In this document: positions 1,048 through 59,514 of the stretch, one piece after another | Position numbering within the stretch: position 1 is the first letter of the stretch | Layout: each line of letters opens with the position of its first letter | Source: Curvularia clavata | Lineage: Eukaryota | Direction: 5' to 3' | DNA length: 64,000 bases | Assembly (NCBI GenBank): GCA_023920165.1 | Contig: CP089274.1 | Span: 4,154,001 to 4,218,000 of the forward strand | Translations under genes and position numbers: made by a program | The notes under the pieces: model-generated | What the model was told of the DNA's origin: nothing | Database searches by the model: none | What the model saw: only the letters and a program-made list of their open reading frames with translations

Positions 1048-2233
1048 GTTGAAGTTTATGCTGTTGCAAAAAAAAACAAGAATTTATTAGAGGAAAGTTG
1101 ATGAATAGTACCAACGGAACAAGCGATAGTATGGTTAACAACCCGCTTTTTAGCGTTAGAGAGTAATATACTAGAAGAGTTAGAGGTATAGAATAGTGTA
1201 AGCAATTGAGTGTGTAAGAAGTATTGTGTATTCTCTTGTATATGATGCTGAGTACAAGTTTAAATACAGTGGCATTAGTCAGTGGCTAACCACGTGACTA
1301 TACATGGTACTTCTGGGCTTACAGATAGATATATATTGCGTTTATTTATTTTTGAGTACGTTACACGTAGCCTGAGCATCCGGAAGAAAAGGTATCCTGT
1401 TACACCGTGCGTCCCGGCACGAAGGGACGGACGTTACTTATTCAGTGAATGTATCCACCTTTAACACTGCATGCACTAAAAGGTATTCAAACTTGCTCGT
1501 TGAGTTTGCTTCTGCTCTACCTTGTGTCACAATGTGGTTTAATCCTCCATGCGCTACGCAAAGTATGTGTAAAGCTAGTGCTTTTTAGTAGACTGCGTGT
1601 GGATAAGATTTTGGCGCGGCTATCCCGTGGTCGTGACCGTGGCTGTAGTAGTGGCCAAAGATGTTCGAAATGACAGTTTGGGGCCAATAGTATTGCACGA
1701 TTGTTGTAACCCGGCTTCCGTGATGATGCTGACAGAATGCGTATGTCGCTTTGCTTTTTACGGCGAAGAGTGAATGTACATGCACGTGATTGCCGCGACT
1801 GCGAAGATGCTGCTACGAAAGATGGTGTTGTTGTGGCTGCAACTATGTTCACCAGTTGACTAGAAATGACTGAGACATCTCCACCTGAACATGTGGCTTG
1901 AGTCGGTTGCCTAAAGGCAAACATTGCTGTACGTCGCACACTGCGCGATTCCAAGGAGTTAAGGCATTATTAAAGATTGACTTTGTACCCTTCACAGAGC
2001 GAATGTCTCTTAGTTCTCAGCTTTCATCGCACCCATCATATTCGTACAATGTCATGTACAGATCTCAGTCTAACAAAGATGACAAAGGAGCACAATGCAT
2101 CCCTTGTCGCTCCCGCCTACTACACCCATCTGCTTCAAATAAGTTATATACTCCAATATCGCATCTTCGACCTTCCAGAAACATACCATCAATAACAGCA
2201 ACAAAAACAATAATAACTTCATTATCGCCCATC

Positions 2234-9300: not shown

Positions 9301-9627
9301 CCTCAATGGCAACAGCCTTTCGGCCCTCACGCATATCACCAATCAAAACAAAATCAAGCAAATGGTTACTTCGCTACTCAAGTATATCCCGCGCCTTCAT
9401 CCTCTCAGTGGCCGTATCCTTTGGGCCCAACACCTCCCCACGCTTACTTACAGCCCCATATCCAGGCGAACACACAATTCACTGCTCAGTCCTACCACCA
9501 CTCCTCAGAGATCCCATCCTCCAGGTCGCCTCTCTACCATAATGGCGCATCTTATCCTAGTCATGAAATCACGCGTACAATAGGTTTCAACCTCTCGTCT
9601 AATTACCGCTCTCAGCGACCTTCGTAA
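6376..9627 (+). CDS. Fungal NLR-like STAND protein (HeLo-like/SesA-type N-terminus + NACHT + degenerate ankyrin-like region + low-complexity tail), interrupted by an in-frame TAG at 8296-8298
   Basis: ATG 6376 MEALVAIGLASNIVQF is a typical fungal STAND N-terminus. Intron 6795-6845 (GTAAGT..GCTGAC..AAG) joins in frame. Motifs: Walker A GKAGSGKST, Walker B FLIDGLDE, SSRP, GVFLWV and HRTVIDF. ORF 8302..9627 is in the same frame immediately after the TAG. Confidence 0.88.
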
Positions 9628-28752: not shown

Positions 28753-31700
28753 ATGGCCCAGGGCACCAGAGGCCCACCACCCGCTACCATGCCCGCCAAC
28801 GGCACCGCGACACACAACCCTGCCCCGACCGCCGTCAACCGCAAGAAGCAGAAGCGCCGCGAGAAGGAGGCTGCAAAGAAGGCCGCCCAGGAACTGCCTG
28901 TGCCTGCCCGGAATGGCGTGTCCCCCGCCCACCAACAGCAGCAGCAACAGTCACCACCGCCGCCACCGCCGCAACAACAACAACAACAACAACAATCCCA
29001 GCAACAGCAACAGCAACAACCACACCAGAAGCAACAGCACCAAGGGCAGCAACAGCAACACGCTCACCCAGAGCTCGACGAGCCACGGTACGATGAGGGC
29101 GCCTACTACTCGGACGAGGAGTACGAGCACGCATACGCCCCCAACGGCGACTACCAGCAGTCCTACAACCACGCTCCGGTGCGCGGCAGCTCGGGCAAGA
29201 AGTCGCGGCGGAAGAAGAAGACGACGGCCTCGGCGCCCCCGCCGCTCGCCTACTCGCAGCACCTTTCCTCGCGCCAGCCCCCCGCCCAGCAATCGCACTC
29301 GGTCGCCCGCTCCGCTTCCAGCAAGGACCGCATATGGAACACGTCGACGGCCGAGGAGCGCGAGCGCATACGCGACTTCTGGCTCTCGCTCGGCGAGGAC
29401 GAGCGCAAGTCGCTGGTCAAGATTGAGAAGGAGGCTGTCTTGCGCAAGATGAAGGAGCAGCAGAAGCACTCGTGCAGCTGCACCGTCTGCGGTCGCAAGC
29501 GCACCGCCATCGAGGAGGAGCTGGAGGTTCTGTATGATGCATACTACGAAGAACTCGAGCAGTACGCACACCTCCAGCAAGACGTCTCTAGTTTCATTCC
29601 CGAGGCTAATTATCGCTATGCGTCCAGTGCTCCTCATCCGCGCCCCATGCTCAATGCCCCGCAGTCCCACGGCCCCTACGACGACGACGAGGAAGAGTAC
29701 GACTCGGGCGAGGAAGACGACGAAGAAGACTCGGATTATGACAGCGAAATCTCCTCCGAAGGCGACTACAGCTCCGGCGAACCCAGTCTGCCGCCCCCCG
29801 AACCCTCCGACTTCCTCCAGTTTGGCAGCAGTTTACAGGTCAAAGGTATGCACATATACCTACATATACGCTTTTCGTTGCTGGGGAACAGGCTGATTCT
29901 TGCTTCTAGGTGGCATACTGACAGTTGCTGACGATTTGCTCAAGAACGACGGGAAAAAATTCATCGAGATGATGGAGCAACTCGCCGAGCGCAGAATGCA
30001 GCGCGAGGAGGAGGCCCAGTTCTCGGCGCATCCAAACATGCAGCATCGCTCCTACGCCGGTCACAGTCACAATGCGCCGCCGCCCGACGACGACGATTAC
30101 GACGACGAGGGCGAAGACGACGAGGAATACGACGATGACGAGTATGATGAGGATGAGGACGACGAGGAAGTGCGTATTTCATGTGCCGCACTATCTACTT
30201 GCAAACTAATCCACCCCAGGGTACCATGACCGAGGAGCAGCGCATGGAGGAGGGTCGGCGTATGTTTCAAATATTTGCAGCGCGCATGTTTGAACAGCGA
30301 GTACTCCAAGCGTATCGAGAAAAAGTAGCTGCAGAGCGCCAACAGCGGCTGCTCGAAGAGCTGGCAGAAGAAGACATACGGAAAGACGCAAAGGAGGCGA
30401 AAAAGGCAAAGGAGGCTCAAAAGCGAAAGGAGAAAAAGGACAAGCAGCGGCAGCAAAAGGCAGAGGAAAAGGCTCGCAAAGAGGCAGAACTCGCAGCAAA
30501 GGAGGCCGAGGCCAAGGCTGCAGAGGAAAAGCGCCTGGAAGAACAACGCAAGAAGCGAGAGGAACAGCGCAAGAAAAAAGAGGCTGAACGCAAGGCTCAA
30601 GAGGAGGAGAAGCAGCGCAAAGAGGCCGAGCGCCTGAAACGGCAGCAGGAAGAGCGCGAGCGACAGCAGGAAGCCGAAAGGAAAGCACGCGAGCAAAAAG
30701 CTCTAGAGAAAAAGGCCAAGGACGAAGCCAAGCGCAAGGAACGAGAGGAACGCGAAGCCAAAGAGAAGGAAGCAAGGGAGAAGAAGGCACAGGAGGAAAA
30801 GGAGCGCAAAGAGCGAGAATCAAAAGCAAAGGCTGAGAACAAGGACCGCCCACGCAAGGAGGATCAAGCTGCCGTTGCAGCCGCTCACAACGCTGTTGCG
30901 GGCGCCAAAAAGCCCTCACAGCCGGTGGCTGTCGCCCTGCCGCCCCAACTGCTCAAGCAGACCTCGTCTACAGGAACGCCCTCGCCCCATGTGACGCCGG
31001 CTATCCCCAAAGCCCCTACTCCGAATCGGCAGCGGCAAACATCGCAGCAGAATTCGCATGGCTCTTCGCCCAAGACACCTCACGCCACGTTGGCGACGAG
31101 CAAGTCAACATCGCCTTCCTCGCAATCGCACGCACAGTCGATGCCACGCTCGATCCTAACAAAGCCACCTGTTCCACAGCAAGCCATGTCTGCGCCACAC
31201 GGCCAGCCATCGTCACCGATGCCCCCCATGGGACCACCGCCAGGCATGCCAGGACCGCCGGGATTGGGTATGGCTAATATGCCTCCAGGATTGAACGGCT
31301 TTGCCAACCAAGCATCCATGATGCCTGGAATGATGGGACCACGCCCAAGCATGCCCTTCTTTCCACAACCGACTCCGCAAAGCTTTCGTGGATTCCCCCC
31401 ACCAGGTATGCACACACCAGGCACGCTACCCATGAGTCGAGGATTCCCAATGGAAGGACCACCTGGCTTCGCCGCGCCCCCTGGATTCACTGCACCGATG
31501 CCATCTGCATTCCCCATGAGTATGCCATCACACTCCCGACAGGGCTCTGGATCGTTTGAGCGACTGTCTAATGTGGAAAGCCCTATTGCTGCTCCCCAAG
31601 CACAGCCGATTCAGCGTCCAGCCCCTATCCAGAGACCTTCGAGCGTTAAACCAGGAGACGACCCGAGAGGATCTGATATTGACGATCTCGCGAGCCATCT

Positions 31701-32349
31701 TGGAAGCAAAGCCCTATTGGACGATGAAGACGACATGCCTGAGTTACCTGACCGACGACCTAGCTTGCAGCAGCATGGATCTGTGAGAGCCCCGTCGTTT
31801 GGATTTGCAGATATGCCAGGTTCGCAGTATGGTTCGTTTGGTGCGCCAGGCGGAGGAAGTATCTGGGGAACACCGCCTTTGCAGGGCTTCAATTCTGGTG
31901 CTACCTGGGGCCACTCGCCAACGTCCAACATCTTCAACAGTCCCTTCTCGACTCGCGGCCATGAGCGTAGCCCTAACGAGCAGCGCATTGTCTGGCTCCG
32001 CCGCACCATCTGCGCTGCTTGCAAGACACTAGCTCCTCGCTCAGATGCGGAGGGCTATGTCGACGCCTCCGAAGTGCATCGACACGTTGATGCATCGCGA
32101 AACGCGCTCGAACCTGCCGTGTCCATGGAGGAGATGAAGGAAGCTTGCGACATCCTGGACGTGACACAAACCAACGGCGGTGGTAGCCTCGAGTACAAGG
32201 AGGACAATGGTCGACTGTCGCACATCAAATTCAGTGACAGCGCTCCCGCTCCTCCACCTCTGGGTGAGATTGGCAGTCCCGTCCCGAGTCACAGCGTGTT
32301 GGCTGGCGGCTTTGGAAGGTTTCCTGGGCTTGGCCCACAAGGCTTTTGA
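28753..32349 (+). CDS. NST1: Stress response protein Nst1, 3 exons
   Basis: NST1 domain [21 protein letters not shown]...[31 protein letters not shown], then [45 protein letters not shown] and a long E/K/R coiled coil. Introns 29846-29909 and 30170-30219. The start could be the Met at 28789. Confidence 0.93.
28933..29059 (+). repeat. CAA/CAG poly-glutamine microsatellite in NST1
   Basis: (CAA)n/(CAG)n runs encoding [22 protein letters not shown]. Confidence 0.9.
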
Positions 32350-41990: not shown

Positions 41991-44111
41991 AGAAGAGACT
42001 CAGCAATGTGTCTTTAGTATTTCCTTAGGTTTCTGGTATCTTGGGCGTCGATGCCGGCTGTGTTCGTTAGAAGATGTAAGCTTCAAGCATCAAGTTTGGG
42101 CTTCTGGTCTTGGCAAGACGCTACATACCAAAAAAGTAGTCACACGTGATGATCTCCTTGCAATGAGTGCTCATCCTACTCAGGTGTTGCCATGGATAAC
42201 ACCGAGTTGTATTATAATTCCTCTTGTCTCCGAAAAGTGCACAGCCTCTGTAACAAGAGTTTGAAGAAACACCACTGATCTCTCTGGAAGCCTGCTGTCC
42301 TCATTGTTTCAGCATCCACCTCCTGCTTGCACGGAATTTATACCACTGACTGTAGAGAAATGCTCGAAATAATTACTACATAGCTCACCCATTTTGGTTT
42401 CCTGCAGTGGCGATCTATGACAATACACAAATATCCAATTGAAAAATTCCAAACAAGAGCTATCACTGAACAGTATTCTCAGATGCGCTGATTTTCCCGA
42501 GTCATAACAGTGTCAATGGGATACAAGCGTTGCGACACGCTTATCCGCAGAGATCGTCGAACCTAGTTCCTAAACGGCTGAAGTTGAACTCTCATCGCAA
42601 GAGAATACCATACTACAGCTTGCCCACCCATAAGCGCCTGAACTCCGACGGGTCACCTAGAAATATTCTGTAAGGCGGTAGTACATAGTAAAGCTGTACA
42701 GGCTTCCACTTTGAAGTGATCAGTTGCGAGGCTATAAGGTGGTAGATCAGCTTTCACGTCAAAAATTTATTAGGATGATATTGCTTCAACGTCATGTAAC
42801 TTACCATTTCAGTAGATCGAGGAGGATCTTCAAAGTGGGTGTTACGCTCTACGAGTTGTGTTTGCTCAGCTTGAGCCGCTGGGACGGCCGCCATAAGACT
42901 GAAAAGGGTTCTAAAATGAATATATAATTCATGGTCGCTGTTTCATGTAGTTGTTGAAAAATTTTGACAGTGAAGTTAATGTTCTGAGAAGAAGATAGTT
43001 TGAGGAGGGAACGGGTAAGCATAATATGATTTTTACATCTATCAATCCAATACTCTACTCTCATTATAGTTAGTATGCTCTGGTTTAGGTTATGTTCAAA
43101 AACGTGAGCCAACGTCAGCGTAGCATCTGTCCGCCATACGTAGTCCTTATTCGGCCCTGATTAGGTCCTTATTCGGTCCTAAATCGAGATGGAATGTGCG
43201 ATGTAAGTCTCACTTTGACTCTTTGCTCTTGACTCCGATCATTGAACAACAGAAGCACAGAAAACAAAGCAACTTCGATGCTCCATGTGCGATCGATGTA
43301 GTGATTTTTCATACTCTACGGTCCCACCACGGTCCGTAATACAGCATTACCCGTGGGAATGCCTCGGCCCGTGGTAAAATGTAGCATGTCCATCTTAGTC
43401 AGGGTGCACGTCTCTTTGAATAAGCTTACAGTGACATATCAAACAAAAATACGGCGTAGCCTATCCTCCCGATCGATAGTCTCAGCCACGACCAGTTATG
43501 ACGATCGAGATCCAATTGTCATTATATAGCTACTCGACAGCGTTCTCAAGCTTCAGCAACGCCCGAAGTATCCAAAAGAAGGTTCGATCGGATCATTGAG
43601 GGGACCGGTGCTCGTATGAATGTGCAAAAGGGGGAAGAAAGAGAGTTACGACTTGAGAAGGCTGAAATATTAAAGGTGAGAAGTATCACTTCCTGCACAA
43701 GCTTTGAACAGCTGGAGAAAAATGTATAGCACAGCAGAAATGAGCTTTGCTGAGGCTTCCTCACTGCCTCGAACGGAAATCAGAGATAATTCAATGCATA
43801 TCCGGCCATTGAAACGATGGGCTGCCGTAACAGCTCACGATCATGACATCACACTTCTCCGTACATGTTGGTGGTTTAGATTACCTGTAGGGAGCACCAT
43901 GCTACTCAATTGAAATTCCTCGTAGTTGCCATTATGGTAGGTGATTGTTGAGTCTCGGTTTCGTTGGATTAGGAACATGTTTTGTTGGGTATGAACAAGT
44001 TCAGAATACTATATGGGTGGACACCGTATAATATTTGGTGAAATAGCAAATCGACACAGACATCATGTTCGTTTGGGGAAACATCACACTGACTGGTTTC
44101 ATACAATAAAT

Positions 44112-46655
44112 TCATTGCAGTAGAAAATTAACCAAACCGGAGACCTCTGCAAATATGGAAATTCTGGGCCACATGAGCTGCATCCTGGCAAAAAACACAG
44201 ACACAATGCTTAGCAAAGCTTGATCCAAAGGATCATAATCCTTTTCTGGTCCTGTGGCGACACGTAACGAAAGTAAGCATGCAGCAAGGATGCTGAGCCG
44301 AATTAGGTGACTAGGCATGTCAGAATTATTACAGCATGAGTGACTTTCTTCTTTGTAACACTTACCAGGTTTGTAGAAGATCGTCAAAAGATAAAATACT
44401 CGAAAACAAGATAACCTCTCGGACCGAACGTTTGGATAGATCTTGGTGTCCCTGGTGTAGAGTAGGAGTGGCGGGGGACGAACAAGACAAACTGATGATA
44501 CCTAATTGAACTAGAGCCTCTTGATAGCGGCAGAAGATTTGATTTTCGAAGCGTGCCGTAGCAGCAGCATTTAACGATTGGACATATGGGTCTGTTTTGG
44601 CTGACTGGTACCACTCGCCAAGTGTTGTTGACAGCTTTACAATCATAGGATTAAGGTCTTTCGCTATAGGTTGTTTTACACTCTGCCAAAGTTCTAAGAC
44701 CTTGACACAGATTTTAGAGTATACAATCCTAATCCTTAGCCACCCTGGATATTGTGGTGGTGCATTAGCGTCCTTAAATTTGTCTTTGAATAGGTTTAAA
44801 GTTGGAAGAGAATCCTCCCTCAGTGTCTTTGCCAGCTGTATTAGCCACATTTTGTACTAGAAGAGAGGTGAAGCGTACAGGGAAGGTCTGCCACCTCAGG
44901 GCGTGAGCCTTATCTATGCAGTGAAGAACCCACATGGCGTGCGTGGCCTGAGCCTGCTTGCTTCTAACGCCAGGATAGTGTAGGCCCAAGGCTGAAGCAA
45001 CTAAGGAAGCATCACATATTAAGTTTGGTAACTTGTTTAACCCGATAATCTCAGCGAAACAGACCTAGATATGTTAGCCAACATCTATTCTGATTCCAGG
45101 GAGATCGAACGCACTATCGCTACAAGGGCCTGATATAGTTTAGTATGAGTTTAGCGATGAGCTGAGAAGACTCACTAGGAATTTTTGAACTGTATTGTTC
45201 TGTTGGAGAAGACACTTTGAGAGTACTGGAATAGTATCTACTAGTGCTACTAACATGGACAAGTCTCCTTCCCGAGGATCTAGGAGTGCTCCCCATGTAA
45301 ACGACACAACGAGCACTGATAGGTCGCTGATGTTAATTGCTGGCCTATCCCACTTGACAAAGCGCTCTTGAACACGCAGAACATCTTCCTCTCTGTTGAA
45401 CATAGCTAGCCTAGTTAAGAGTAAGTACACCTAGCCACTCTGAAATGAATTCAACTTACCCAAATGGTTCTTGGAATGCTCCTGTGGCCGGTTAGTAACT
45501 CATGTATGTACATTATAACTGTATCTCAGAGCATCGTTAACGTACTTTTGATGAGCCTCTCCATAGGTAGTGAATATAGATCTATACCATGGCTTACTCC
45601 ATCACATTCGGCCTGGCGCAAGAGACTGGGCAAGCAAATTTGATGTTCTAGTGACAGTACGCTTTTGATCTTGTCCAGTGTTGTTTGCTGCCGAAGGTCT
45701 GTAATTTTCGTTTCTCGGAAAAACCCGTCGATTCTGTGCGCTTTTGGTCCCAGGAAAGAAGGTTCCTTAGTCAATTTAGTGGTATTGACTTGAGATAAGA
45801 GATGGTGGCACCTACTTCGACGTTTTCATTCGCTATGCGAGCAGTGAGTGCATCCAAAACTGATATAGGAGAACGATGTTCTGCTTGAATCTCAACAGGA
45901 TTTTCGGACCAGATCACATGGTCCAGCAACAGACTTGAATCAAAGCTCTCTTTGAGGGTATTCGGTGGCAATGTATCATGTTCAACACCATGATATCGGC
46001 TCTCCTCTACTTGGGTAATTACGTGACAATTTTGTTCTGGTTTCTCATTAGCTATTTATACTCAGATAAAAATTCTTCTTTTCTCCTTTTTTTCAACTCC
46101 ATGAATCCACACTCTCATAATTAGATCTATAATAAAAGGTCGTAGGACGTACCCATGTCTTTTGGAAAATAGTTGTCAAGGATACTCGTTTCACATAGAC
46201 CTAAATCAAGAAACAGTGGTGTAGATTCAGGTGTTGGCTGGAAGAAACGATCATCTGTTGTAGAAGCTACAGTGGCTCCCAAAATGCCCTTGACTTGATT
46301 CACAACAGTTTCAGGTGAATCGTTTTGACTGGACAGAACGGGAATCATGTCTTCAGTGATTGGGTCCTGCTGCAAGCGCTGCGCGATTTCCCTTTGGTGA
46401 CGACGCTGTGCACGATCTGTATGGACATATTCGCAAGGCGATGAACTTCGCTATCGAACGGTGAGCTAGGCCTAAGAAAAAGAACCGGGCTTATCAAATA
46501 CTTCACATTGGCTGCAAGGCTTTGCCCCATCACCTGCAGCTATGTCTCAGTAATCGTAGAGAGCGTTAAGAAACAGCCTTACATCTAATTCTTCTCTGAC
46601 GACAAAGTTTGCAAGCGCCTCTCCGTCGGATAAGCTTGGGGCGAGGAGGATGCAT
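44112..46655 (-). CDS. Zn(II)2Cys6 fungal transcription factor with middle-homology domain, 11 exons
   Basis: Splicing from ATG 46655 gives MHPPRPKLIRRRGA-CKLCRQRRIRC/DGAKPCSQCE/RSSSPC (CX2CX6CX5CX2CX6C; introns 46534-46582 and 46451-46501). Eight further GT-AG introns keep the frame through LGLH...AMWVLHCIDKAHALR (Fungal_trans-like) to the stop at 44112. Confidence 0.85.
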
Positions 46656-47478
46656 GCAGAAGAAGAAATCAATAGTTGCCTATCCAAAAGCAAAGAGTAT
46701 TTCTGAGCAAAAGGTATGAGAATCGTAGACCCACATCATTCATATAGCTCCCTGACGTAAGAGTGTTAAGAACTATCTCGAGGTAGGCATTTTCCTGGCG
46801 CCATGCAACTCAAGAATGGGAACAGCCAATGGTTTTCAACCGGTGGAGTATACCCCGCGTCAGAAAGCCACAATAGCATGGGGCAGCTATGCTTGATCAA
46901 ATGCCATCCCTGATAAGAGCTTTCCTCGTACGCGTATGTTGTGCCAAAGGGACTCCATCCGCCAATCTCCGGCGCCTGGCGCCAAGATGTCAGGACTTTA
47001 CAGCACAATTCTAGATTGTGTATCTGACTCATCACCTGGAGTCAGGGAACTATCCGGCCCAAGATAGTAGTAGCGGCAAATGCCTGCTACCCGTTTATAC
47101 TGATATTCAAGGAAAACTATGAGAACAGCACAGGCTTACATGTCAGTGCTCTCTTTGACCGAACAAGCACCGATTTTAGGCAACTCACTGTTTGCATCTC
47201 TATTTTTCTTCTAAAACAGCGAGAATCTAAGAAAAGTAATATAACAAGCTCTCTTTCCAAATTTCTGTCTAACATGTAAATCAATCAAGATTTGTCGCGT
47301 CCCTCTATTACGATCAATGTAGAGATTATATGACCCAATCATGTACGCAGAAGCTGATTCTACTGCCTAGACATCCTAATAACGGTCATCTTACTTAGCA
47401 AAATTTAGGCCACTGTAAGACTTGATCTCACCGAGTCGGCTCCTTTATGCCAGATGGGTCCGGGGCTTTACCTAGATA

Positions 47479-47559
47479 CACAACAGGGGTAAGCCTGTTA
47501 TCCCATCGACTTGGCTTCATTATCCCCAACAGGGTCGAGACTTCACAACAGGGATAAGC
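47479..47559. promoter_or_regulatory. Repeated motif cluster (CACAACAGGGRTAAGC x2 plus partial/inverted copies) ~0.85 kb upstream of the Zn2Cys6 gene
   Basis: 16-mer direct repeat with 1 mismatch at 47479-47494 and 47544-47559, CAACAGGG at 47527, and TTATCCC at 47498 and 47520. Confidence 0.4.
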
Positions 47560-50524
47560 ATGCAACCTTGCCAAGCCGGTTTCTTCCTGGGTACAAAGTT
47601 AGTCGTTTCTTACCATCATCATCAGTTTCCCGATATGTAACCAATCAGAACTTATTACCTACAGGCTCACACTGCGACTGTCCGTCTTCAGATTATCTGA
47701 AAACTAGAGATGTTTGAAAGTAAAATAGATCAACGCGTCTAGAACAACGCTATCGAGTTCAAGACTTCCGCACAGCGGAGAGGACCGCAATCCTATTCCC
47801 AGCCGTCTTATGAGATGCACGGCAAGCGTCAGGCGCTGCGCTGACTATATATACTATCCTGTGCAGAGCATTAGCAGAACGCCGATTACTCGTACCTTTT
47901 TGGTTGCAGTAGCCCAGTGGCACAGTTGGCTGAGCTTCTGACAGCAAGGCTTTGAACACCCCTGCCACAAGATTGAGTCTTGCCCTGGCTGCTGTGAATA
48001 TATCACAACCCTTTTCTTAGGGAATGGGTGCGCCATTATGTCTGTAAGACACCACATTCCACGTACACCGGATAATGTAGTCTCTAGGACTTTTGCTTAA
48101 TCTTACAGCGGCTTGAAGGGAGACTGGTAGGATATGTGGATACAATAGTCTTGAGTAGAGAGCGGTACGGCGGACACGCTCTCTTGTCCAAAGCTCGATA
48201 TGGTTCCCACCGTTGGTTTGGAAAAGAGTTGAAGAGGTCCATGCTCTCATTCCACCCGGTTTTCTCCGCTTGAAAGATATCATAAAAAAGTGAGATTTTC
48301 GAATAAAGCTTGGTGGGGATGAGCATATGGTTGCCAGTGGTGGATAATTTGGTTGTTTACAACAGAGCGATTTAGATCGCAATTTACGCATCCAAGGACC
48401 TAGTCGGCGTCTGAGACCACCCATGTGCTACTGCGCCAGCTTGGACCAGCTTTACGGAAATGCCATATAGCCATGCTGACATGATTCAGAGTGAGATGCA
48501 AAAAAAATGTCAACTAAGGTTCCTGGTGTCTATGCACCAATAAGCAGGTCAATATGTAGATAAGGGACGGCAAATATTTTGACTTGGGTTGGGCCGACAT
48601 TGCTATCAGTGCTGCAAACGAGGCGTGTAATGTTTTCATGTTTCGAATGATGCTGACATACTTGAGGGTAGTTCGGGACACTCCGGGCTTTTCCTCAGCG
48701 CTCTGCTTGGCGTCGCCCGGTTTCTTTATACGCTCGAACCAATGTCATATGGGAAAGTAGAGACCCTGTGGAGCTTGGCGAGTTTTATACATCATAGTCG
48801 GCGTTTGCTAGTTCGGGTCTCATCCGCAGTATCTGGTGGTCATTAGTTAATGTATGGAAGAGGGAAGAAAAGCTATCTTTTTCGGTAAGGCTGACCATAT
48901 TGTTGGCTTTCTCATGCAAATGAACAAATGACTAAGTTATCCAAAGTAATGCCGTAATCCTTCCTATCACGCTATCCACTCTCATTGACGAGACACTGCT
49001 TTGCCGACGCTCGGATTGCTACACCTTGAGTAAGACCTCGGACCTCCAACTCCGCTGTATCTTTTTTTTTTTTTTAAAAAAAAAAACCCCCCGGAACCAG
49101 ACACATGAATCACAACAAATCTGGTCTCTTGCATCTCATGAATGCAACACAACATATAGATCGCTACCCAAAAAGCCCACACGTGACGAATGGACATACC
49201 GACGGGATGGTAGCTACGATGCGGTCTCGGCTTTAATGAGACTTCTGTCTTTCCTCACTACTTCAAAGCCACCACCAGAGACAAACTTGTGAACAGAGGT
49301 GTAATGGCACGTGATGTTGGAGTAATGACAAGTCACGTGCTATACAACAATGGGAAAAGGAAGGTGCAACAATATTATCTCCCACCTAGCATAATACGGA
49401 CGGCCCTGGCTTTGTCCTTCCCCCAGTCATCGCGCAACTTACCATCTCGAAGCCGACTGCATGTTGAGTTTCATAGCAATGTTCCGCCTGAAGCAAGCAG
49501 CGAGTAGACAGCCAAGTCGCTCGGCCTCGATGTTACTGCAACGCTATGCCCAGCTCAACGCGACAAATGCTACCGAGCCGCTATCATGATCGCCGATTCT
49601 GCGAACATTCCTGGATTTTTCTCAATGCAAACCAGCAGTTGTTCTCCGCCCTTGGCTCTTGGATCTTGGACATTGGAGGCCGAGCCATAGCCCAGCGGTC
49701 TGGCAATCCTGGATGCTGTCTCAGGACCCTGCCACGAAACAGGTATTACCCGTGTTAGGAGCGTTGAAAGTGCATCCTCATTTGAACCATCTGCAGGTCC
49801 AACGACGAATAGGCGAGACACCGATGATCCGGTAATGGGTACGTCACACCCACCTAACCTTGTCGGCTCTGTTGGTGTAGTATGACTTGGCAAAAATTAG
49901 TGCCAGGATTCGGATGCGCTCATGCCGAAACCAAAAGGCAAATACACCAGGGAGACACAACCACGTTGTTGTCAGTTGTCTAGCGCTGCTCTGGCAGTGG
50001 CTATCTCAACAGAGATCAAGTGGCGCAGCCTGGACACGGAGCTGCTGATGGAATTCAGCAATTGGCCCCCACCTGCATGAGCTGAAAGATGGCGGCCCAA
50101 ATATAGGCTGGCTCCACTGCGGGGACCAGCCGCCCTACGAGTCCGCCATAGTGATAGCAGCCTGAGCTCACCGTGTTTTGTGCGAAACATTTGGCTTTGC
50201 ACGGGATCGCATGGGCTGGGAGGGTATAGGAACAGAGCACAGCGCTTTCAGGGTCTCTCTGACATTCCTCTCACCACGTGCGCGACGCGTATGCCTATGC
50301 CGGTCTTGGGCACTGGTGATTACTACTGCTACGCTAACAGCATACTTACACAAGCAATTACACCGTCAGCAGGGAGCTTATTATCCGTCTTCTAGCCCCC
50401 TCGCCAGGCGCCCACCCTCCTCGCTCAAGCCGCATCAGCAGGAGTTTTGCGTAGAAACACTCTTCTCCCACCCACTCAACACCCCTATTCCCCAGTGTCC
50501 AGACGTTGATCGCCGACCACCAAC

Positions 50525-53967: not shown

Positions 53968-54678
53968 ATGAACGGCTGGCTCGTCTTCGCCATCATCCTC
54001 ATCCTCGTCCTCTCCTTGACCTACTTTGGCTGGTATTTCTACGCGCGCTGGAATGCTTCGCGCAATGGCCTGCCCCCGCCGTCCATGAACCCTATGGTAG
54101 CTTTCAGCAGTTCCTCAGGCGCTGAAGCATCAAACTACCCGGGCCCCGCTCCTACAGGCATCAAAGGTTGGATCGACACCCAAGTACGCAAGTTCAAGAA
54201 CCGCAACAACAGGTACACGACCGGCAGCGGCTACGAAGACACGGGCTATGGAAATTCGCGCGGCGTCGGTGGCGGCCGTGGCGCTGGCAGTCGCTTGGAC
54301 CCCGACGAGGCATGGAGTTCCCGCGTGGGCGACGAAGCGTACTACGAAGAACAGGAGTTGGGCCTCCACGACCCTGTGTCTACCCACCAATCTGCAAATC
54401 CTTTTGCCGGTGAACCCGCTCGCGGCCGCAGTCGCACCCGTGAGTCGTACGACGAGCATCTCGATGCGCATAGCGGAAAGAATCCATTTGGCGACGACAA
54501 TGCGGCTAGTCTACGCGGCGTGAGCCCAAGACCCGTAATGGACGCTGATACTGGCTATCACGGTGCTGCGACGGCGACCATGCCCAGCGCGAAGCCGAAT
54601 AGGAAAAACGGGAGCATTGACAGCCATGATGATAGTCCGACAGAGAGTCGGCGGAGCGTGTTCAGGGAGGCAATATAG
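53968..54678 (+). CDS. Single-pass membrane hypothetical protein (N-terminal TM, NPF motifs in the tail)
   Basis: ACC-ATG start, a hydrophobic segment of ~23 aa, LDPDEAW..RV, YYEEQELGL, two NPF motifs and a C-terminal RRSVFREAI. Confidence 0.8.
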   Translation: MNGWLVFAIILILVLSLTYFGWYFYARWNASRNGLPPPSMNPMVAFSSSSGAEASNYPGPAPTGIKGWIDTQVRKFKNRNNRYTTGSGYEDTGYGNSRGVGGGRGAGSRLDPDEAWSSRVGDEAYYEEQELGLHDPVSTHQSANPFAGEPARGRSRTRESYDEHLDAHSGKNPFGDDNAASLRGVSPRPVMDADTGYHGAATATMPSAKPNRKNGSIDSHDDSPTESRRSVFREAI

Positions 54679-55235
54679 ACGAGGTGTGATGAAAGCGGGG
54701 GAGTTGTAATTGAGACGGTTTAGCGGGGACTACGTTTAACATTTTCCTTTACAAATGGGAGGGTTTTTTCTTTCTTCTCTGTTCCATATCATAGCTTTTC
54801 AGCAAGCAAATGGCACGCGCAGTGGCGCTGGGGCGGGTTGTGCAACGGAACATATAACCGTGTAACTTCCTTGCGGGAAAAAGCACTTTTTAACCTGGAA
54901 ATATCGTTGACCCTGTTTTGTCCCCGTATTCTTATCTATCTGTCATGTGGGGGAAGCGTTGCGCACGACTCATGGGATCTACACACGGCACAGACTAGAT
55001 GAAACATAAGAGTTCAAATTCGTATTGCAATAATGATCATGCACGTCTATCACCACCAAGACTAGGACAAGATGCAAAAATGCAGTCAAGAAGCAATGGC
55101 GAAAATCAACCTAGTCTATCTGGCATGCTCCAACACTAAATGCAAGAAACCAAAAGAGTGTAGAAAGTGAGGAAACGATAACAAAATGAGAAGAGGTCTC
55201 GTAACTTGGCTTACATTGCCATCCCCCATGCAAGC

Positions 55236-56573
55236 TCAACCAACCCACTCACGAGCCTGCACACGCTCTTCGCGGCGGTGAATGTCGTTTGCTGCTTCGT
55301 GGACGATGGCGGGAGTCCAATGCGGTGGAGTGTAATGATAAAGGCTTGTGAACCTATCAGCAGCTGCCTGGATGCTGTTGTCCTCTTGAGTCGTTCCCGC
55401 TGAAGTCTCTGGAGCTGGGGCTTCAGAGGTTGTTTGGGGTGCTGCTGATGGAGTGCTCTCCTGGTCAGAAGACTGGCGGGGGAGAACGTGAGGACGAGGA
55501 ACGGGCGCAGTTCCCTCGATGGGTGTGTCGTCCCCAGCAAATGCCTCTCGTTTCCTCCCGATCAGTGGTGGATTACCACCATCACTAACATCACTCGCCT
55601 GCTCATGGACGATGGCTCCAAGTGGGATGAGGCCGCGTTTCCTCCACACTCCGGAAGCTGGGTTGTGGATAATCATATCGTTAGGGGCATTCGCCCTAGA
55701 TTGACCTTCTAGTGAGCCTACAGAGCTGACGTCTCGTTTACTCCCAGCGGGCGGCTTCTCACCACCGTTACTGACATCAGACGCTTGCTGGTGGGCTATG
55801 GGTCCACTTGGCAGGGAAATAATTGGCCTTATGTCGCGTTTTCTCCACACCCCGGTAGCCGGATTGTGAATAATCACGTCGTTGATGGAATTGGCATTGG
55901 ACTGCCCTTGTAGTGAGGACACAGGGTTAGAATCTCGTTTTCTCCCAGCGAGCGGTTCGTCACCACCTTCACTGACATCACTCGCCTGCTGGTGGACTAT
56001 AGCTCCAACTGGCAGCGTGCCGCGTTTCCGCCACACGCCAGACGCTGGTTTGTGGGTGACAGAGTCGTAGTTTGCACTAGCCTGGTCTTCCACGATCCCA
56101 TTAGCAGCACCATCGTTATGGGTTCCTGTTGGCATCTCTTGGCGGGCGTAGATGTCATTTGTCTTATGATGGGTCTCGATCCAATGGCCCTTGGTAACAG
56201 CTTCCAATGGTAGGCGACGGTAGATCCCATTCGCTCTTTCATGAGTGTCAGGACCGTCCCCATTACACCGCTGGTTCCGTACAGATCTGTGCTCGATAAG
56301 TATCTCATCATCTCTTACTACAGTGGGCTAGAACGTACGCCGGTATGCCTGTTATGCCCGGTCTCTGGCAAGGATCGCAAACTTTCAATCTCTCCTGCCT
56401 GGTCTCCGTCAATATCTATACAGTCAAACACAATTGCTGGATTCAACTTACCAGGATATAGTGGTGTCAATACACATCGGTGGGTTTATAGGGTCGTCCG
56501 GTGTGGGTGCTGCTATGACTTGCAATGAGATCATACTAGCAAGCACCACGTAGGCAAAGCATTTTTGCACCAT
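55236..56573 (-). CDS. Secreted Kex2-processed repeat protein (KEP) / multi-peptide precursor, 3 exons, ~410 aa
   Basis: ATG 56573; exons 56573-56452, 56398-56339 and 56286-55236 splice in frame. Signal peptide MVQKCFAYVVLASMISLQVIA-AP. Six RKR/SKR sites separate alternating repeat modules. Confidence 0.85.
55545..56070 (-). repeat. Tandem ~190-200 bp coding repeat units in the KEP gene
   Basis: Recurrent H(N/K)PA(S/T)GVWRKR and H(Q/E)QASDVS(E/N/D)GG..P..G(R/S)KR blocks, three copies each. Confidence 0.85.
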
Positions 56574-56770
56574 CTTTACGAGGGCTTATGGCACTCTTGA
56601 TGATCGACAAGAAGAAAAATGAAGGTGCTTAGAGGAGTTGTTGAATCGGAAGTCTTGGGGAAAATCGACTTTTTCCAAGTAAGCCGCTCGTCGTGTTCGA
56701 TGTGAACTCAATGGACTAGTGTTGAACGTGATTGTCCAGCTTGATTTATGCTCAAGAATGCATTCCTCTC

Positions 56771-56776
56771 TTTATA
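56771..56776 (-). promoter_or_regulatory. Putative TATA box of the KEP gene
   Basis: TATAAA on the minus strand ~200 nt upstream of ATG 56573. Confidence 0.45.
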
Positions 56777-57581
56777 GTGCCTTCAATGTCCTGGTCGATG
56801 AGCAGGTTCAAGCAACGGAACGCCAGTGTCGTTCCTCCTCATCAACCCAACTCCGTGATCGTCCTTCAGGCCAACCCTCTCACCATTAGAAAGCATGCAT
56901 CAGCGCAAGATTGGAGTGTTCGCCCCTCAGCTTTTGCGCCATGTCTTTCCGTCTTTCTCAATTTGGCTCCATGGAGAGGCGGGTCGAGGACGGGATGAGA
57001 GTAGGATGCAAGAGTATGCAAGACCATGCAAGATCGGCTTCGAATAGAAACAACCTAGTTCATAATGAATCTACTTGGATAATTGCCGTTAGAAACGATG
57101 AAACTAGTTCGGAAGCGAGGCTCCCGACACCCAGGTTTGAGATCGGGGTTCCTTGGCGTGGCGTTTGGCCCCCGGTCGGCTATGTAAAGGGTTGATGATT
57201 AAGCGACCAACACGATGACCTACTCCGAATAATTGGGGGCCGTACGCTAAAGTCAGCTCTTTGACTTGCGACTACTCCAAACTTGAGTTAATCACTCGAA
57301 AATGGTAGTACACGTGCTAGTCAGGGCCAGCCGTAATGGGGCCGAGACACAGTAATGTTGTAACTAGAGCCGCGTGTCTTGGACAGTAGCGAAGCACTAT
57401 TCGTCCTCAGTGAAAATCGAAGTAATCGGCTCTATCCGTCTGGCCTTATCGGAATTTCATGACCTTCTTGTTTGATATCAGCTTCACCGTAGCTGGGGTT
57501 GTCAGACGACGCAGTGTCGAACGGCCCAGATCGATAAACTGATAGCTTGGTAACGCCTATCAGAAACCTCCATCACACTTT

Positions 57582-59514
57582 GTGTTTTCGTATGACCCAT
57601 ATATCTTCCGTATTCTACTGCTCCTAGTATTAGTATTCCTTTTCAACCGTTCAGAAATCTACGCTTAGACATACCGGTGCGTGTTGTCGTTTCCAAGCGG
57701 GATGTTGTCAGCCCGGTCTTCTCGTCCAGTGGCGAGTGCAACGCCAATCTCCTTTTCGCCGTCCCAATACTTTGATGGAAACGATGGAAAATGGTCCACA
57801 TTCATGGTGCGCGCAGGTACACCGGAGCAGACTTTTCGTGTTCTGCCATCAACGGTCACCAGCGAAACATTCCTTCCAATGGCTGGGGCATGCAAAGACA
57901 ATCAGACAATAAGCAAGGTTGGATTGCCCCGTTTCTCAACCTAAGAGTTTTGACTGATGCTTATTTAGCAAGATTGCATGTACTCGCGTGGTGCGGAAAT
58001 CTACCAGGGCAGACCAAACGATGGATTCCAAGCAGATCTGTCCAGTACATGGCATGAGATCGGTATCTACCGTACCGAGACGCGATCAGAACTGGGCTAC
58101 AATGCTTCTGGTCTATATGGTCTTGATACTTTGGGATTAATGGTTGCCAACTCAGGGGGGCCCACTCTTGAGAACCAAACGATCGGAGCGGTCGTAAACC
58201 CACGCTTGTGGCTTGGGCGACTGGGTATGGATGACAAGCCGAACAACTTTTCCGATTTCGACAACCCACAACGGAGTTTGATAAAGACTTTGAAAGAGGA
58301 AGGACTCATACCCAGCTTAAGTTATGGGTATACAGCTGGAGCATATTACAGTAAGTTGAAACGCCTACGCTGTGATTTGAAGGCATAAAAGACTTACAGT
58401 TCATCTAGAACAGCCGAGCATGTTCGGCAGCTTAACCTGGGGTGGTTACGACCAGTCTCGATTCGTTCCAAACAACATCACATTCCCCTTTGACGCCAAC
58501 GACAGTCGTAAGCCTAGCTTGAGCTTGCAGTGGATAACAACACAGAATATCACTGGCCAGTCTGTCAGTATTCTGCAAGAGAGGGCACCGTATATGCTGG
58601 TCGATTTCGCAGAGTCTCAGATATGGCTCCCAGTATCTGCCTGCGACCAGTTTGCAACGGCGTTCAATTTGACATACGACAACACCACAGATCTCTACTT
58701 GGTCGACGCGTCGACACATGCAAAGCTCGTGCAACAAAACCCAAATATAACCTTCAGATTTGGTCAATCTGCATCCGACCCCACAACTCAAGTGGATGTC
58801 GTGCTCCCCTATAGCGCATTTGATCAGCAAGCTTCATTTCCCATTTACGAAAATGCAACCAACTATTTCCCCATAAGACGGGCATATAACGAAACCCAGT
58901 ACACCTTGGGGCGTACATTCTTCCAAGAGGCGTATATCAAGATGGACTATGAGCGACAACATTTCTCAATCCATCAAGCATTGTTCCCAGCAGCCAATGA
59001 AAAGCAGCAGCTTATTCCAATATCGAGTATTGAAGCAGCGGTTGCACCCGTCGAGAAGCGTTTGAGCAAAGGCGCTATAGCAGGAATATCAATAGGCAGC
59101 TTCCTGCTGTTAGTAATAATGTCACTCCTGGGATTCTGGTTTTGTCGCCGAAGAAGAAGAAGAAGAAGATCTAAGAACCAGTCTGAGCCTGAAATCGAGG
59201 CTCCAAAGGTGGAGTGTGGTGGACAGGAGAAGGTAGAGTGCGACGGGCAGCAAAAGGTAGAGACCGAAGGTGTGGCTATCTTTGAGAAAGACGGGCTACC
59301 GTACGCGGAGATGGAAGGGCACATCTTCCCGGAATTATACGGCGGCGAACCGGAAGGCGAAAGGGACGTACCTGATATCCATATTCAAAAAGCAGATATG
59401 GATACGGTTTTCGAGTTGTACGAGAGTACTGACAACAACAGACGGTTCAGTTATGAAGAAACTACGTCTACTGTGTTTGAGCAAGAGGGGTGCCCTTCAA
59501 AAGGACAGCAATAA
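57582..59514 (+). CDS. Membrane-anchored pepsin-like (A1) aspartic peptidase homologue; 5' end degenerate
   Basis: PSQYFDGNDGKWSTF.VRAGTP.Q.FRVLPST, IPSLSYGYTAGAYY, GSLTWGGYD.SRF, YTLGRTFFQEAY, a TM helix GAIAGISIGSFLLLVIMSLLGFWF and a poly-Arg stop-transfer. Introns ~57918-57968 and ~58350-58407. The signal-like segment is cut off by a TAG at 57666. Confidence 0.8.

Follow-up and report, generated by a model that had tools for sequence, protein, structure and literature searches.

A spliced three-exon gene for a 410-amino-acid protein

The window analyzed here is a 64,000-nucleotide stretch of Curvularia clavata contig CP089274.1, and all positions given below are positions within it. Its minus strand carries a three-exon gene (56573-56452, 56398-56339 and 56286-55236) whose spliced coding sequence of 1233 nt is in frame and specifies a protein of 410 amino acids. 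Exon 1 (56452..56573), which aligns with the N-termini of Bipolaris proteins, opens with the start codon at 56573 (A at position −3, G at position +4) and holds the signal-peptide region together with the first Cys of a short N-terminal region. Exon 2 (56339..56398), also covered by the alignment, comprises 60 nt and adds a C-x-x-C pair. The fourth Cys, every His-core module and all eight dibasic sites are encoded by exon 3 (55236..56286), which ends in a TGA stop codon (55238-55236). Intron 1 (56399..56451) is 53 nt and runs from GTAAGT to CAG, and intron 2 (56287..56338) is 52 nt and runs from GTACGT to CAG.

The two small upstream exons had been proposed in an earlier note on this DNA, and public sequencing runs bear out both the exons and their splicing. 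Both introns, which read CT..AC on the plus strand, are exactly absent from contigs of three of the four runs (X1, X2 and X16), and these represent three studies and three organism labels. The contigs pass from 56397 to 56451 across intron 1 (‘cut +1’) and from 56286 to 56339 across intron 2, and pieces covering 56339-56397 of exon 2 are found in all three. The fourth run, X10, has just two short pieces, both of which lie within exon 3. Among the transcript-like contigs, the longest (X1 record 2; 55041..56734, minus strand) is 1589 nt without the introns, with a 195-nt trailer and a 161-nt leader that lacks an upstream ATG. The kind of each run is a guess (‘RNA?’), and we infer that the intron-less contigs are transcripts because their depth is uneven, their ends fall at the gene borders and they carry adaptor tails. 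With the contigs so interpreted, the gene is expressed and its transcript is spliced to give the 410-amino-acid frame.

A hydrophobic N-terminus and no predicted fold

The upstream exons supply a hydrophobic signal region and a four-Cys segment, as the earlier note had claimed, and both align with independently annotated Bipolaris homologues. The N-terminus has Lys at position 4, a 16-amino-acid stretch with a GRAVY value of 2.06, and then small residues ahead of Pro23. The strongest Kyte–Doolittle window of 19 amino acids reaches 1.87 at residue 5, and the maximum after residue 30 is at most 0.37. By this hydropathy heuristic, together with the conservation in Bipolaris, the protein has a putative signal peptide and, beyond it, no membrane segment.

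The remainder of the protein is predicted to be unstructured. An AlphaFold2 model has a mean pLDDT of 44.7 and a pTM of 0.15, and Pfam assigns the protein to no family. Weak Pfam matches to Kelch_6, Tox-SHH and CD24 (E-values 0.012-0.53), none of which reached its cut-off, were dismissed. A sequence search of the PDB with the family profile returned 0 matches at E-values up to 1, and the ESM Atlas yielded no usable match.

Alternating His-core modules are bounded by basic pairs

Eight [KR]R sites punctuate the protein in the order RR, RKR, RKR, RKR, KR, RKR, RKR, RR, and cleavage at these sites in silico yields nine fragments. Shuffled versions of the mature protein have 2.6 such sites on average, and only three of 5000 shuffles reach eight, a comparison in which sites within duplicated repeats depend on one another. 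The dibasic runs take up 21 of the 39 Lys and Arg residues, and the P1′ residue that follows a site is mostly D, E or G. The core H-x-x-[AT]-[STN]-[GD]-[IV] occurs nine times versus an expectation of 0.009, with a maximum of two in 20000 shuffles, and three of the nine cores sit outside the tandem part. Tandem Repeats Finder (TRF) detects a period of 201 nt, which corresponds to one A+B pair of modules, in 1.9 copies with 77% matches at 55634-56015.

The modules of the minus strand can be followed from the N-terminus to the C-terminus of the protein. The first His-core module (56214..56246; residues 75-85) ends in RR, closes the four-Cys N-terminal fragment and has a homologue in the Bipolaris ...GVW-RR module. 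The fragment that follows (56022..56213; residues 86-149) consists of 61 amino acids plus RKR and combines a degenerate module with an H-K-P-A-S-G-V-W module that is present family-wide. The earlier note had read the degenerate module as ending in DIY-AR. A module is indeed found there, but it lacks a dibasic site; the corresponding residues are VR in the orthologue and RR in the Bipolaris homologues.

Next come the alternating peptides. Three peptides of type A, of 26, 32 and 26 amino acids, share the core H-[QE]-Q-A-S-D-V-S and are followed by RKR (55935..56021), KR (55734..55835) and RKR (55548..55634), respectively. Two free type B peptides (55836..55934 and 55635..55733), each of 30 amino acids plus RKR, end in ...I-I-H-N-P-A-[ST]-G-V-W, and the first of them is preceded by an invariant KR-[DE]-[AS]-N-P-V junction. 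Of the three type B modules previously listed, the first is not a separate peptide; this third copy closes the 61-amino-acid fragment. All of the peptides are acidic, with pI values of 4.1-5.4, charges of −1 to −4 and GRAVY values of −0.46 to +0.30.

The C-terminal fragment of 90 amino acids (55272..55547) consists of a Ser/Thr/Pro-rich spacer followed by a conserved W-T-P-A-I-V-H-E-A-x-N-D-I-H-RR module, and a tail of 11 amino acids (55239..55271) extends past the last RR. The tail is conserved in the orthologue P0001. After the last RKR the earlier note had read EA-FA; Phe is replaced by Leu in all four runs, and the resulting EA-LA still consists of X-Ala dipeptides. Overall, four of the nine fragments are non-repeated pieces. 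With these adjustments, the proposal of a signal peptide followed by alternating His-core modules between dibasic sites agrees with what is found.

A small family of putatively secreted proteins in Pleosporales

The earlier note had called for a profile search, which was run on proteins with HMMER. An exhaustive search of 1.84 billion proteins revealed a small family of five matches (E = 2.8e-169, 5.8e-18, 1.2e-13, 3.0e-13 and 5.6e-4). One is the orthologue P0001, and hypothetical Bipolaris proteins are among the rest. The Bipolaris proteins and four further sequences belong to the family as judged by E-values, N-terminal alignment, invariant columns and shared modules. Among named organisms, the family is found in Pleosporales only, and every homologue is annotated as ‘hypothetical’. 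Scans of metagenome contigs with family alignment A2 and with P0004 confirmed no homologue locus. For six homologue locus tags or accessions, no publication was found in a search that covered articles without their supplements.

Three of the eight invariant columns among nine aligned homologues (R86, K116 and R117) are dibasic-site residues, and H78, P80, A81, W85 and R86, which belong to the H-K-P-A-S-G-V-W module and its basic pair, are invariant in all nine. Across 10 family proteins, 46 of 60 H-x5-[IVL]-[WYH] cores are directly followed by R[RK]; shuffled sequences contain at most 0.004 copies of this strict motif per protein. The family signature can be written H-x-x-A-x-x-[IVL]-[WYH]-RR.

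Retention of the dibasic sites, on which the earlier proposal depended, extends from the orthologue to the distant homologues. P0001 has two A/B pairs versus three in the C. clavata protein, and its module borders keep RRR, KKR, RKR and RKR with one pair fewer. The last 33 amino acids of the 90-amino-acid C-terminal fragment are nearly identical in P0001. The Bipolaris proteins (XP_014556001, COCSADRAFT_184100, COCMIDRAFT_24711, EMD89484 and others) are true homologues that share the signal region and the four Cys residues. They also have the H-K-P-A-S-x-[IV]-W-RR module, a KR-E-A-x-P-V junction and, at the C-terminus, the W-T-P-A-[IL]-T-H...D-I-H-RR module, and the D-I-H-RR module occurs two to three times in each. 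However, they are only 24-28% identical to the C. clavata protein, and their modules are far apart and not in tandem, with no amplification of the A/B pair.

This scattered arrangement bears on whether the protein is cleaved at all. In the homologues of Bipolaris and in P0012, the motifs lie within long, variable Pro-rich stretches, and the conserved element is therefore a motif rather than a ‘peptide’. The protein might be secreted as a disordered repeat protein and act either intact or only partly cut, for example as a hyphal coat or as a binder of the host or the cell wall, with H...[WYH]-RR serving as binding motifs. The Ser/Thr/Pro-rich spacer and the AlphaFold model without a fold are compatible with such a role, and there is precedent in Rsp3, a repetitive effector that Ustilago maydis secretes and that is described as decorating hyphae.

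Several observations argue against an intact protein. Within the modules, conservation is highest at the basic pair, and at the KR-[DE]-[AS]-N-P-V junction K and R are invariant even though no His core is present. Moreover, secreted proteins that expose KR or RR in disordered stretches travel past the kexin of the Golgi and would need protection to escape cleavage. A hydrophobic C-terminus of the GPI type is also absent. We consider an intact mode of action unlikely.

Relation to known KEPs and a proposed route of maturation

By both published working definitions, the C. clavata protein belongs to the Kex2-processed repeat protein (KEP) class of fungal peptide precursors, with the signal peptide assigned by a hydropathy heuristic. 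As given by Umemura (2020; PMC7329392), a KEP has a signal peptide and at least three tandem repeats of 8-100 amino acids between KR, KK, RK or RR. The pipeline as described by Le Marquer et al. (2019; PMC6339444) asks for at least four fragments and at least three repeats that account for at least 15% of the length. The C. clavata protein has nine fragments, with type A present three times and type B twice as a free peptide, plus a third copy that closes a larger fragment. Type A repeats account for 3 × 26 = 78 amino acids (19%) and type B repeats for 3 × 30 = 90 (22%), so that 168 of 410 residues (41%) lie in repeats.

The similarities to KEPs therefore include the signal peptide, three or more repeats bounded by KR or RR in one region, and, in relatives, X-Ala or X-Pro pairs after KR. 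There are also differences. The repeat cores are unlike the motifs named in PMC6339444 (DADAATxYV[AV]D, YVW[GA][GS], SPPHKT, QKLKVD and xSDW), and six core strings gave 0 matches in four supplement files of that study, a set that did not extend to its peptide-sequence Table S2. The conserved module stands directly ahead of a dibasic site, at which cleavage is predicted, even in the non-tandem homologues. None of five Bipolaris homologue accessions appears in Umemura's Table S2 of KEPs, which consists of accessions only and in which the C. clavata protein itself may be present. Because the Bipolaris modules are scattered and these accessions are missing from the table, the family as a whole seems to resemble a classic KEP less than its C. 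clavata member does.

The earlier note had classed the gene as a KEP, and each element of that assignment that could be checked has held. The best explanation for these characteristics, and one we regard as probable, is that this gene of a Pleosporales fungus specifies a KEP-type pre-pro-polypeptide from which Kex2 would release linear peptides. Once the protein has entered the ER, Kex2, the kexin of the Golgi, would cut behind each KR or RR to give the nine fragments. A carboxypeptidase of the Kex1 type would then strip the basic tails, and the type B peptides would therefore end in Trp. Since the junction in relatives reads KR-[DE]-A-N-P-V-P, a dipeptidyl aminopeptidase of the Ste13 type may trim X-Ala or X-Pro pairs there. 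Such trimming is doubtful for the C. clavata protein because the type B N-terminus (D-S or D-V) is not an X-Ala pair. The acidic linear peptides would leave the cell without further modification.

A comparable route is described for Ece1 of Candida albicans, in which Kex2 and then Kex1 release the peptide candidalysin of ∼30 amino acids (PMC5784256). Both systems have a pre-pro-protein, basic pairs and unmodified peptides of ∼30 amino acids, with the processing in C. clavata inferred. By description rather than by sequence comparison, they differ in that candidalysin damages membranes, whereas the C. clavata peptides are acidic and repeated and have no predicted helix. The Rep1 repellents of Ustilago maydis (PMC3133707), which are described as forming amphipathic amyloid fibrils on aerial hyphae, are likewise set apart by description and not by sequence; Rep1 is a basidiomycete protein, and the peptides considered here are hydrophilic and acidic.

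The architecture also resembles that of an alpha-type mating pheromone precursor, which includes a signal peptide along with a pro-region and repeats separated by KR, and the KR-EA or KR-DA junctions of the relatives fit this pattern. However, the Pleosporales pheromone core P-Y-G-[LM]-P-[IV]-G, as given in PMC6339444, does not occur in the protein, which agrees with the earlier remark that the cores are unlike those of alpha-pheromones. The same source places this class at 9-24 amino acids, compared with 26-32 for the C. clavata peptides, and here two types of peptide alternate. That the gene encodes the mating pheromone of the fungus is extremely improbable.

Neighboring genes give no sign of a biosynthetic cluster

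A signal peptide followed by repeated cores between KR sites is also the architecture described for precursors of the ustiloxin type (PMC7329392), such as UstA. The C. clavata gene could accordingly encode a RiPP precursor, with cores that enzymes encoded elsewhere in the genome modify, for example by a His–aromatic cross-link. The spacing from His to the aromatic residue, which is fixed throughout the family, speaks for this reading. Unlike UstA-type (dikaritin) precursors, however, the C. clavata gene has no DUF3328 gene nearby among the ORFs scanned, its units of 26-32 amino acids are much longer than dikaritin repeats, and its neighbors are housekeeping genes.

We examined 262 stop-to-stop ORFs of the window with Pfam: 116 of at least 95 amino acids between 1 and 35.4 kb, a set of 19, 126 of at least 70 amino acids between 35.4 and 64 kb, and the exon-3 ORF of the gene itself. 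None of them matched DUF3328/UstYa or a tyrosinase, P450 or methyltransferase domain, in a scan that small exons could escape and in which the right flank measures just 7.4 kb. This result upholds the earlier statement that the window lacks a DUF3328/UstYa oxidase. For comparison, PMC7329392 gives a figure of 22% for KEPs accompanied by a DUF3328 gene, which on average lies 3.09 genes away. We regard a RiPP origin as quite improbable.

A neighboring pepsin-like gene was considered as a dedicated processing enzyme. Its C-terminal lobe alone matches the Pfam family Asp, and does so weakly (E 1.3e-6); the ORFs upstream of it have no Pfam match. This candidate was set aside because the match is weak and partial, and adjacency alone is not evidence.

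Possible roles of the peptides

If the peptides are released as the KEP assignment predicts, then a ligand role, either in signaling or directed at a host or competitor, would be the most likely function, and it would be exerted through the conserved His-to-aromatic end. A membrane-lytic or cationic antimicrobial role is unlikely because of the charge of the peptides. Metal binding, which had also been suggested, would have a single His per peptide on which to draw, and the peptides contain no nameable metal-binding motif.

A broader proposal, which we put forward tentatively, is that H-x-x-A-x-[GD]-[IV]-[WYH]-RR marks an undescribed family of secreted pro-proteins. Its kexin-released ligands, serving as self-signals or addressed to a plant or microbial partner, would be read via the His-to-aromatic end. 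The lineage of the C. clavata gene probably amplified one A+B pair, and in this proposal the amplification would have raised the dose of two such peptides.

Fungal peptide precursors of this class are common, and the gene is an uncharacterised member. By the account in PMC7329392, 7878 KEPs occur in 1345 strains, with a mean of 5.25 per ascomycete strain, and 2560 of them have no homologues. Two motif types within one precursor also have precedent, being reported for 77 of 1193 KEPs (PMC6339444). The function of most fungal KEP-derived peptides is described as not known (PMC9769878). The C. clavata gene offers a well-defined test case, with a supported gene model, expression, and two types of ∼30-amino-acid peptide suited to chemical synthesis. 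An orthologue that differs in copy number allows comparison, and the homologues in Bipolaris, a genus of cereal pathogens, point to the key residues, namely His, Ala, the aromatic residue and the basic pair. Should the peptides prove to be signals or effectors, the family would constitute a new class of ligands in Pleosporales. Otherwise, the gene joins the several KEPs that are usual for an ascomycete genome.

Divergence among repeats and strains

The repeat copies are old. In five of six pairs, pS is 0.44-0.77 and pN/pS is 0.31-0.72, values that we count as support for the peptides probably being under selection. The pair A1-A2 has a pN/pS of 1.17, and in the strain comparison 16 of the 28 coding differences listed change the residue, in a table with 22 further rows that may be partly noncoding. 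These two observations indicate that the sequence evolves fast.

Gene structure and expression

Reading of the minus strand and splicing by coordinates place the putative KEP (Kex2-processed repeat protein) gene in three exons: exon 1 at 56573-56452, exon 2 at 56398-56339 and exon 3 at 56286-55236. The exons are separated by introns of 53 nt (56451-56399, GTAAGT..CAG) and 52 nt (56338-56287, GTACGT..CAG). The third exon corresponds to the minus-strand ORF 55239-56327, and the gene starts at 56573. The spliced coding sequence of 1233 nt is in frame and yields 410 aa, and no upstream ATG was found in the leader. These limits are identical to those proposed in an earlier note made from the sequence alone.

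Four public sequencing runs (X1, X2, X10 and X16) were compared over positions 54900-57000 of the window; none of the 18 rows of the run listing is recorded as RNA, and the run kinds are guesses. In X1, X2 and X16, which represent three studies and three organism labels with 95-99% identity to the window, one contig each links 56286 to 56339 and 56397/8 to 56451/2. The contigs therefore lack both predicted introns (CT..AC ends on the plus strand), as anticipated in the earlier note from its two spliced upstream exons. Run X10 gave just two short pieces, both within exon 3. The contig of X1 (1589 nt) spans 55041-56734 and ends there, and read depth is zero across the intergenic positions 56746-56958; in X16, depth is very uneven and the pieces bear adaptor tails. 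These contig ends, depth patterns and tails fit transcripts. The same joins could arise by exact DNA loss of both introns in three relatives, which is the less likely explanation. A second, independent check on exons 1 and 2 comes from sequence comparison, in which the spliced N-terminus aligns with annotated Bipolaris N-termini across the signal region and all four cysteines. We conclude that the gene is expressed and spliced. The coding parts of X1 and X2 show neither insertions nor deletions relative to the window, and the repeat number is therefore the same in these relatives.

Architecture of the predicted precursor

The N-terminus carries Lys4 and a hydrophobic stretch of 16 residues (GRAVY 2.06), with small residues ahead of Pro23. 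Hydropathy over 19-aa windows peaks at 1.87 at aa 5 and never exceeds 0.37 after aa 30. Four cysteines lie downstream of the hydrophobic stretch. Eight [KR]R sites divide the protein into nine fragments. Fragment 1 is N-terminal, contains the cysteines and ends with a His-core module and RR; fragment 2 (61 aa) ends with H-K-P-A-S-G-V-W and RKR. Fragments 3-7 alternate between the two peptide types, A (26 aa), B (30), A (32), B (30) and A (26). They are followed by a Ser/Thr/Pro-rich fragment of 90 aa that ends with H-E-A-A-N-D-I-H and RR, and by an 11-aa tail. Tandem Repeats Finder (TRF) reports a 201-nt period, equal to one A+B pair.

Of the 39 basic residues in the mature protein, 21 fall in dibasic or tribasic runs. 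Shuffled sequences have 2.6 dibasic sites and reach the observed 8 in 3 of 5000 cases; duplication inflates the observed number. A common core, [AV]-I-[VI]-H-x-x-A-[ST]-[DG]-V, is present in both peptide types; a looser form, H-x-x-[AT]-[STN]-[GD]-[IV], occurs 9 times versus 0.009 in shuffles. When all six frames of the 64-kb window are considered, the strict module, H-x5-[IVL]-[WYH] followed by RR or RK, has five matches, each of them inside the KEP gene.

An AlphaFold2 model from a nine-sequence alignment has a mean pLDDT of 44.7 and a pTM of 0.15, with two 5-residue strands and one 12-residue helix. The model is compatible with a disordered polyprotein, and nothing in it points to a repeat fold, although this is weak evidence because the alignment is shallow. 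An intact disordered surface or effector protein could give a similar model; we regard that alternative as unlikely.

Relatives and conservation

A Pfam search with the protein gave no match above threshold, and a word-indexed search returned a single hit among 5.8 billion proteins. An exhaustive HMMER search of 1.84 billion representatives, with a two-sequence profile as query, gave five: P0001 (287 aa, 53% identity), P0002 (a 189-aa fragment), P0003 (a Bipolaris victoriae hypothetical protein), P0004 (421 aa, from a metagenome) and P0005 (B. maydis). Searching with P0003 adds P0012 and proteins of B. sorokiniana, B. oryzae and B. maydis. Relatives are few in number, and the named ones are all annotated 'hypothetical', with no Pfam family found in them. 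Bipolaris is the only named genus recovered by the HMMER and P0003 searches, which reflects rapid divergence, a patchy distribution or failure to annotate this three-exon gene. In the B. oryzae homologue P0010, residues 1-62 form an extra stretch before the conserved Met and signal region with which the other Bipolaris homologues start. The annotation probably sets its start codon too far upstream, an error that would make secretome predictions miss the signal peptide.

The orthologue P0001 has two A/B pairs versus three in the window protein. It keeps a basic pair at each module border (RRR, KKR, RKR, RKR), and its last 33 residues are near-identical. The nine-sequence alignment has eight invariant columns (H78, P80, A81, W85, R86, P92, K116 and R117), three of them in dibasic sites. 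Across ten family proteins, R[RK] directly follows the H-x5-[IVL]-[WYH] core in 46 of 60 cases. A second conserved border, KR-[DE]-[AS]-N-P-V (KR-E-A-N-P-V-P-P-P in Bipolaris), contains X-Ala and X-Pro pairs, the type that Ste13 removes according to Le Marquer et al. (PMC6339444). The architecture and the conservation of basic pairs are directly observed.

The repeats did not arise recently: in five of six pairwise comparisons, pS is 0.44-0.77 and pN/pS 0.31-0.72, the sixth (A1-A2) having values of 0.18 and 1.17. Thus, the cores were retained under moderate constraint while the DNA drifted. Among the 28 coding differences listed between window and runs, 12 are synonymous and 16 non-synonymous, the latter concentrated in the C-terminal spacer, and none hits a dibasic residue; the table has 22 further rows, some possibly outside the coding region.

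Processing and function

A KEP is the best-supported reading of this gene. The protein falls within the working definitions of both KEP surveys (Le Marquer et al., PMC6339444; Umemura, PMC7329392). The searchable parts of both catalogues, which exclude the Le Marquer peptide table, hold no trace of the H-x5-[IVL]-[WYH] family; the Umemura table check covers the homologues rather than the window's own protein. No paper naming the homologues by locus tag was found. Two motif types in one protein are already known for 77 of 1193 KEPs, according to Le Marquer et al. (PMC6339444). What is added is a family-wide module placed directly before the predicted cleavage site, and a clean contrast between the tandem-amplified form of the window and the scattered forms of Bipolaris.

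We infer secretion, cleavage and trimming of the peptides. The precursor would be imported into the ER and cleaved by kexin after every KR/RR, a Kex1-type carboxypeptidase would take off the basic tails, and the acidic peptides would be secreted without modification. This order follows Le Marquer et al. (PMC6339444) and the Ece1 paper (PMC5784256). Every fragment is acidic (pI 4.1-5.4 for the five repeat peptides); charge and the absence of amphipathic structure speak against peptides that lyse membranes or act as cationic antimicrobials. Our preferred guess is a ligand read via the conserved His-to-aromatic end. An alpha-pheromone precursor is scarcely conceivable, since the P-Y-G core is missing.

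Genomic surroundings

The genes neighboring the KEP gene are ordinary. A Pfam scan of 262 stop-to-stop ORFs in the window identified a DAGK-type kinase, DUF7053, an F-box protein, a CSC1/RSN1 channel, AGM1, NST1, a Ras GTPase, biotin ligase, an oxysterol-binding protein, PGM, an XPG-I protein, a fucosidase, a NACHT protein, a Zn2Cys6 factor and a weak pepsin-like protein. The RSN1 neighbor is 88% identical to proteins of Stemphylium lycopersici and an Alternaria species and 85% to a Pyrenophora teres protein, which places the source of the window within Pleosporales, close to Pleosporaceae. No DUF3328/UstYa domain turned up in the scanned ORFs, in agreement with the earlier note, and none of the P450, tyrosinase or methyltransferase type did. 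We consider a RiPP precursor modified by unlinked enzymes improbable.

The pepsin-like gene (57634-59514, plus strand) is divergent from the KEP gene. Pfam Asp matches its C-terminal lobe only, weakly (E 1.3e-6, profile positions 143-312 of 315), and the expected D-[TS]-G triplets appear degenerate by eye. The ORF ends with a hydrophobic segment, a run of ∼8 Arg and an acidic tail, so the product may be a membrane-anchored, inactive aspartic-protease homologue. A convergent single-exon ORF (53968-54675, plus strand, ∼236 aa) starts with a membrane segment at its N-terminus and continues into a Gly/Ser/Arg-rich region in which no domain is apparent; it has no Pfam family. The X2 contig connects it with the KEP transcript, which suggests that the 3' ends overlap.

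Positions 42000-50000 (∼8 kb) have a G+C of 0.44-0.48 versus 0.53 on both sides, few long ORFs and no Pfam match in ORFs of at least 70 aa. Two plus-strand open frames, 1889-5059 (1057 aa) and 30157-32346 (730 aa), have no Pfam match at E up to 1e-4. The latter adjoins the NST1 domain ORF in a region with G+C of 0.57-0.63 and AT skew of 0.23-0.32, and is probably low-complexity coding sequence. The NACHT / NPHP3_N / DUF7791 gene (6826-9624, plus strand) belongs to the NLR-like type that filamentous ascomycetes commonly carry.
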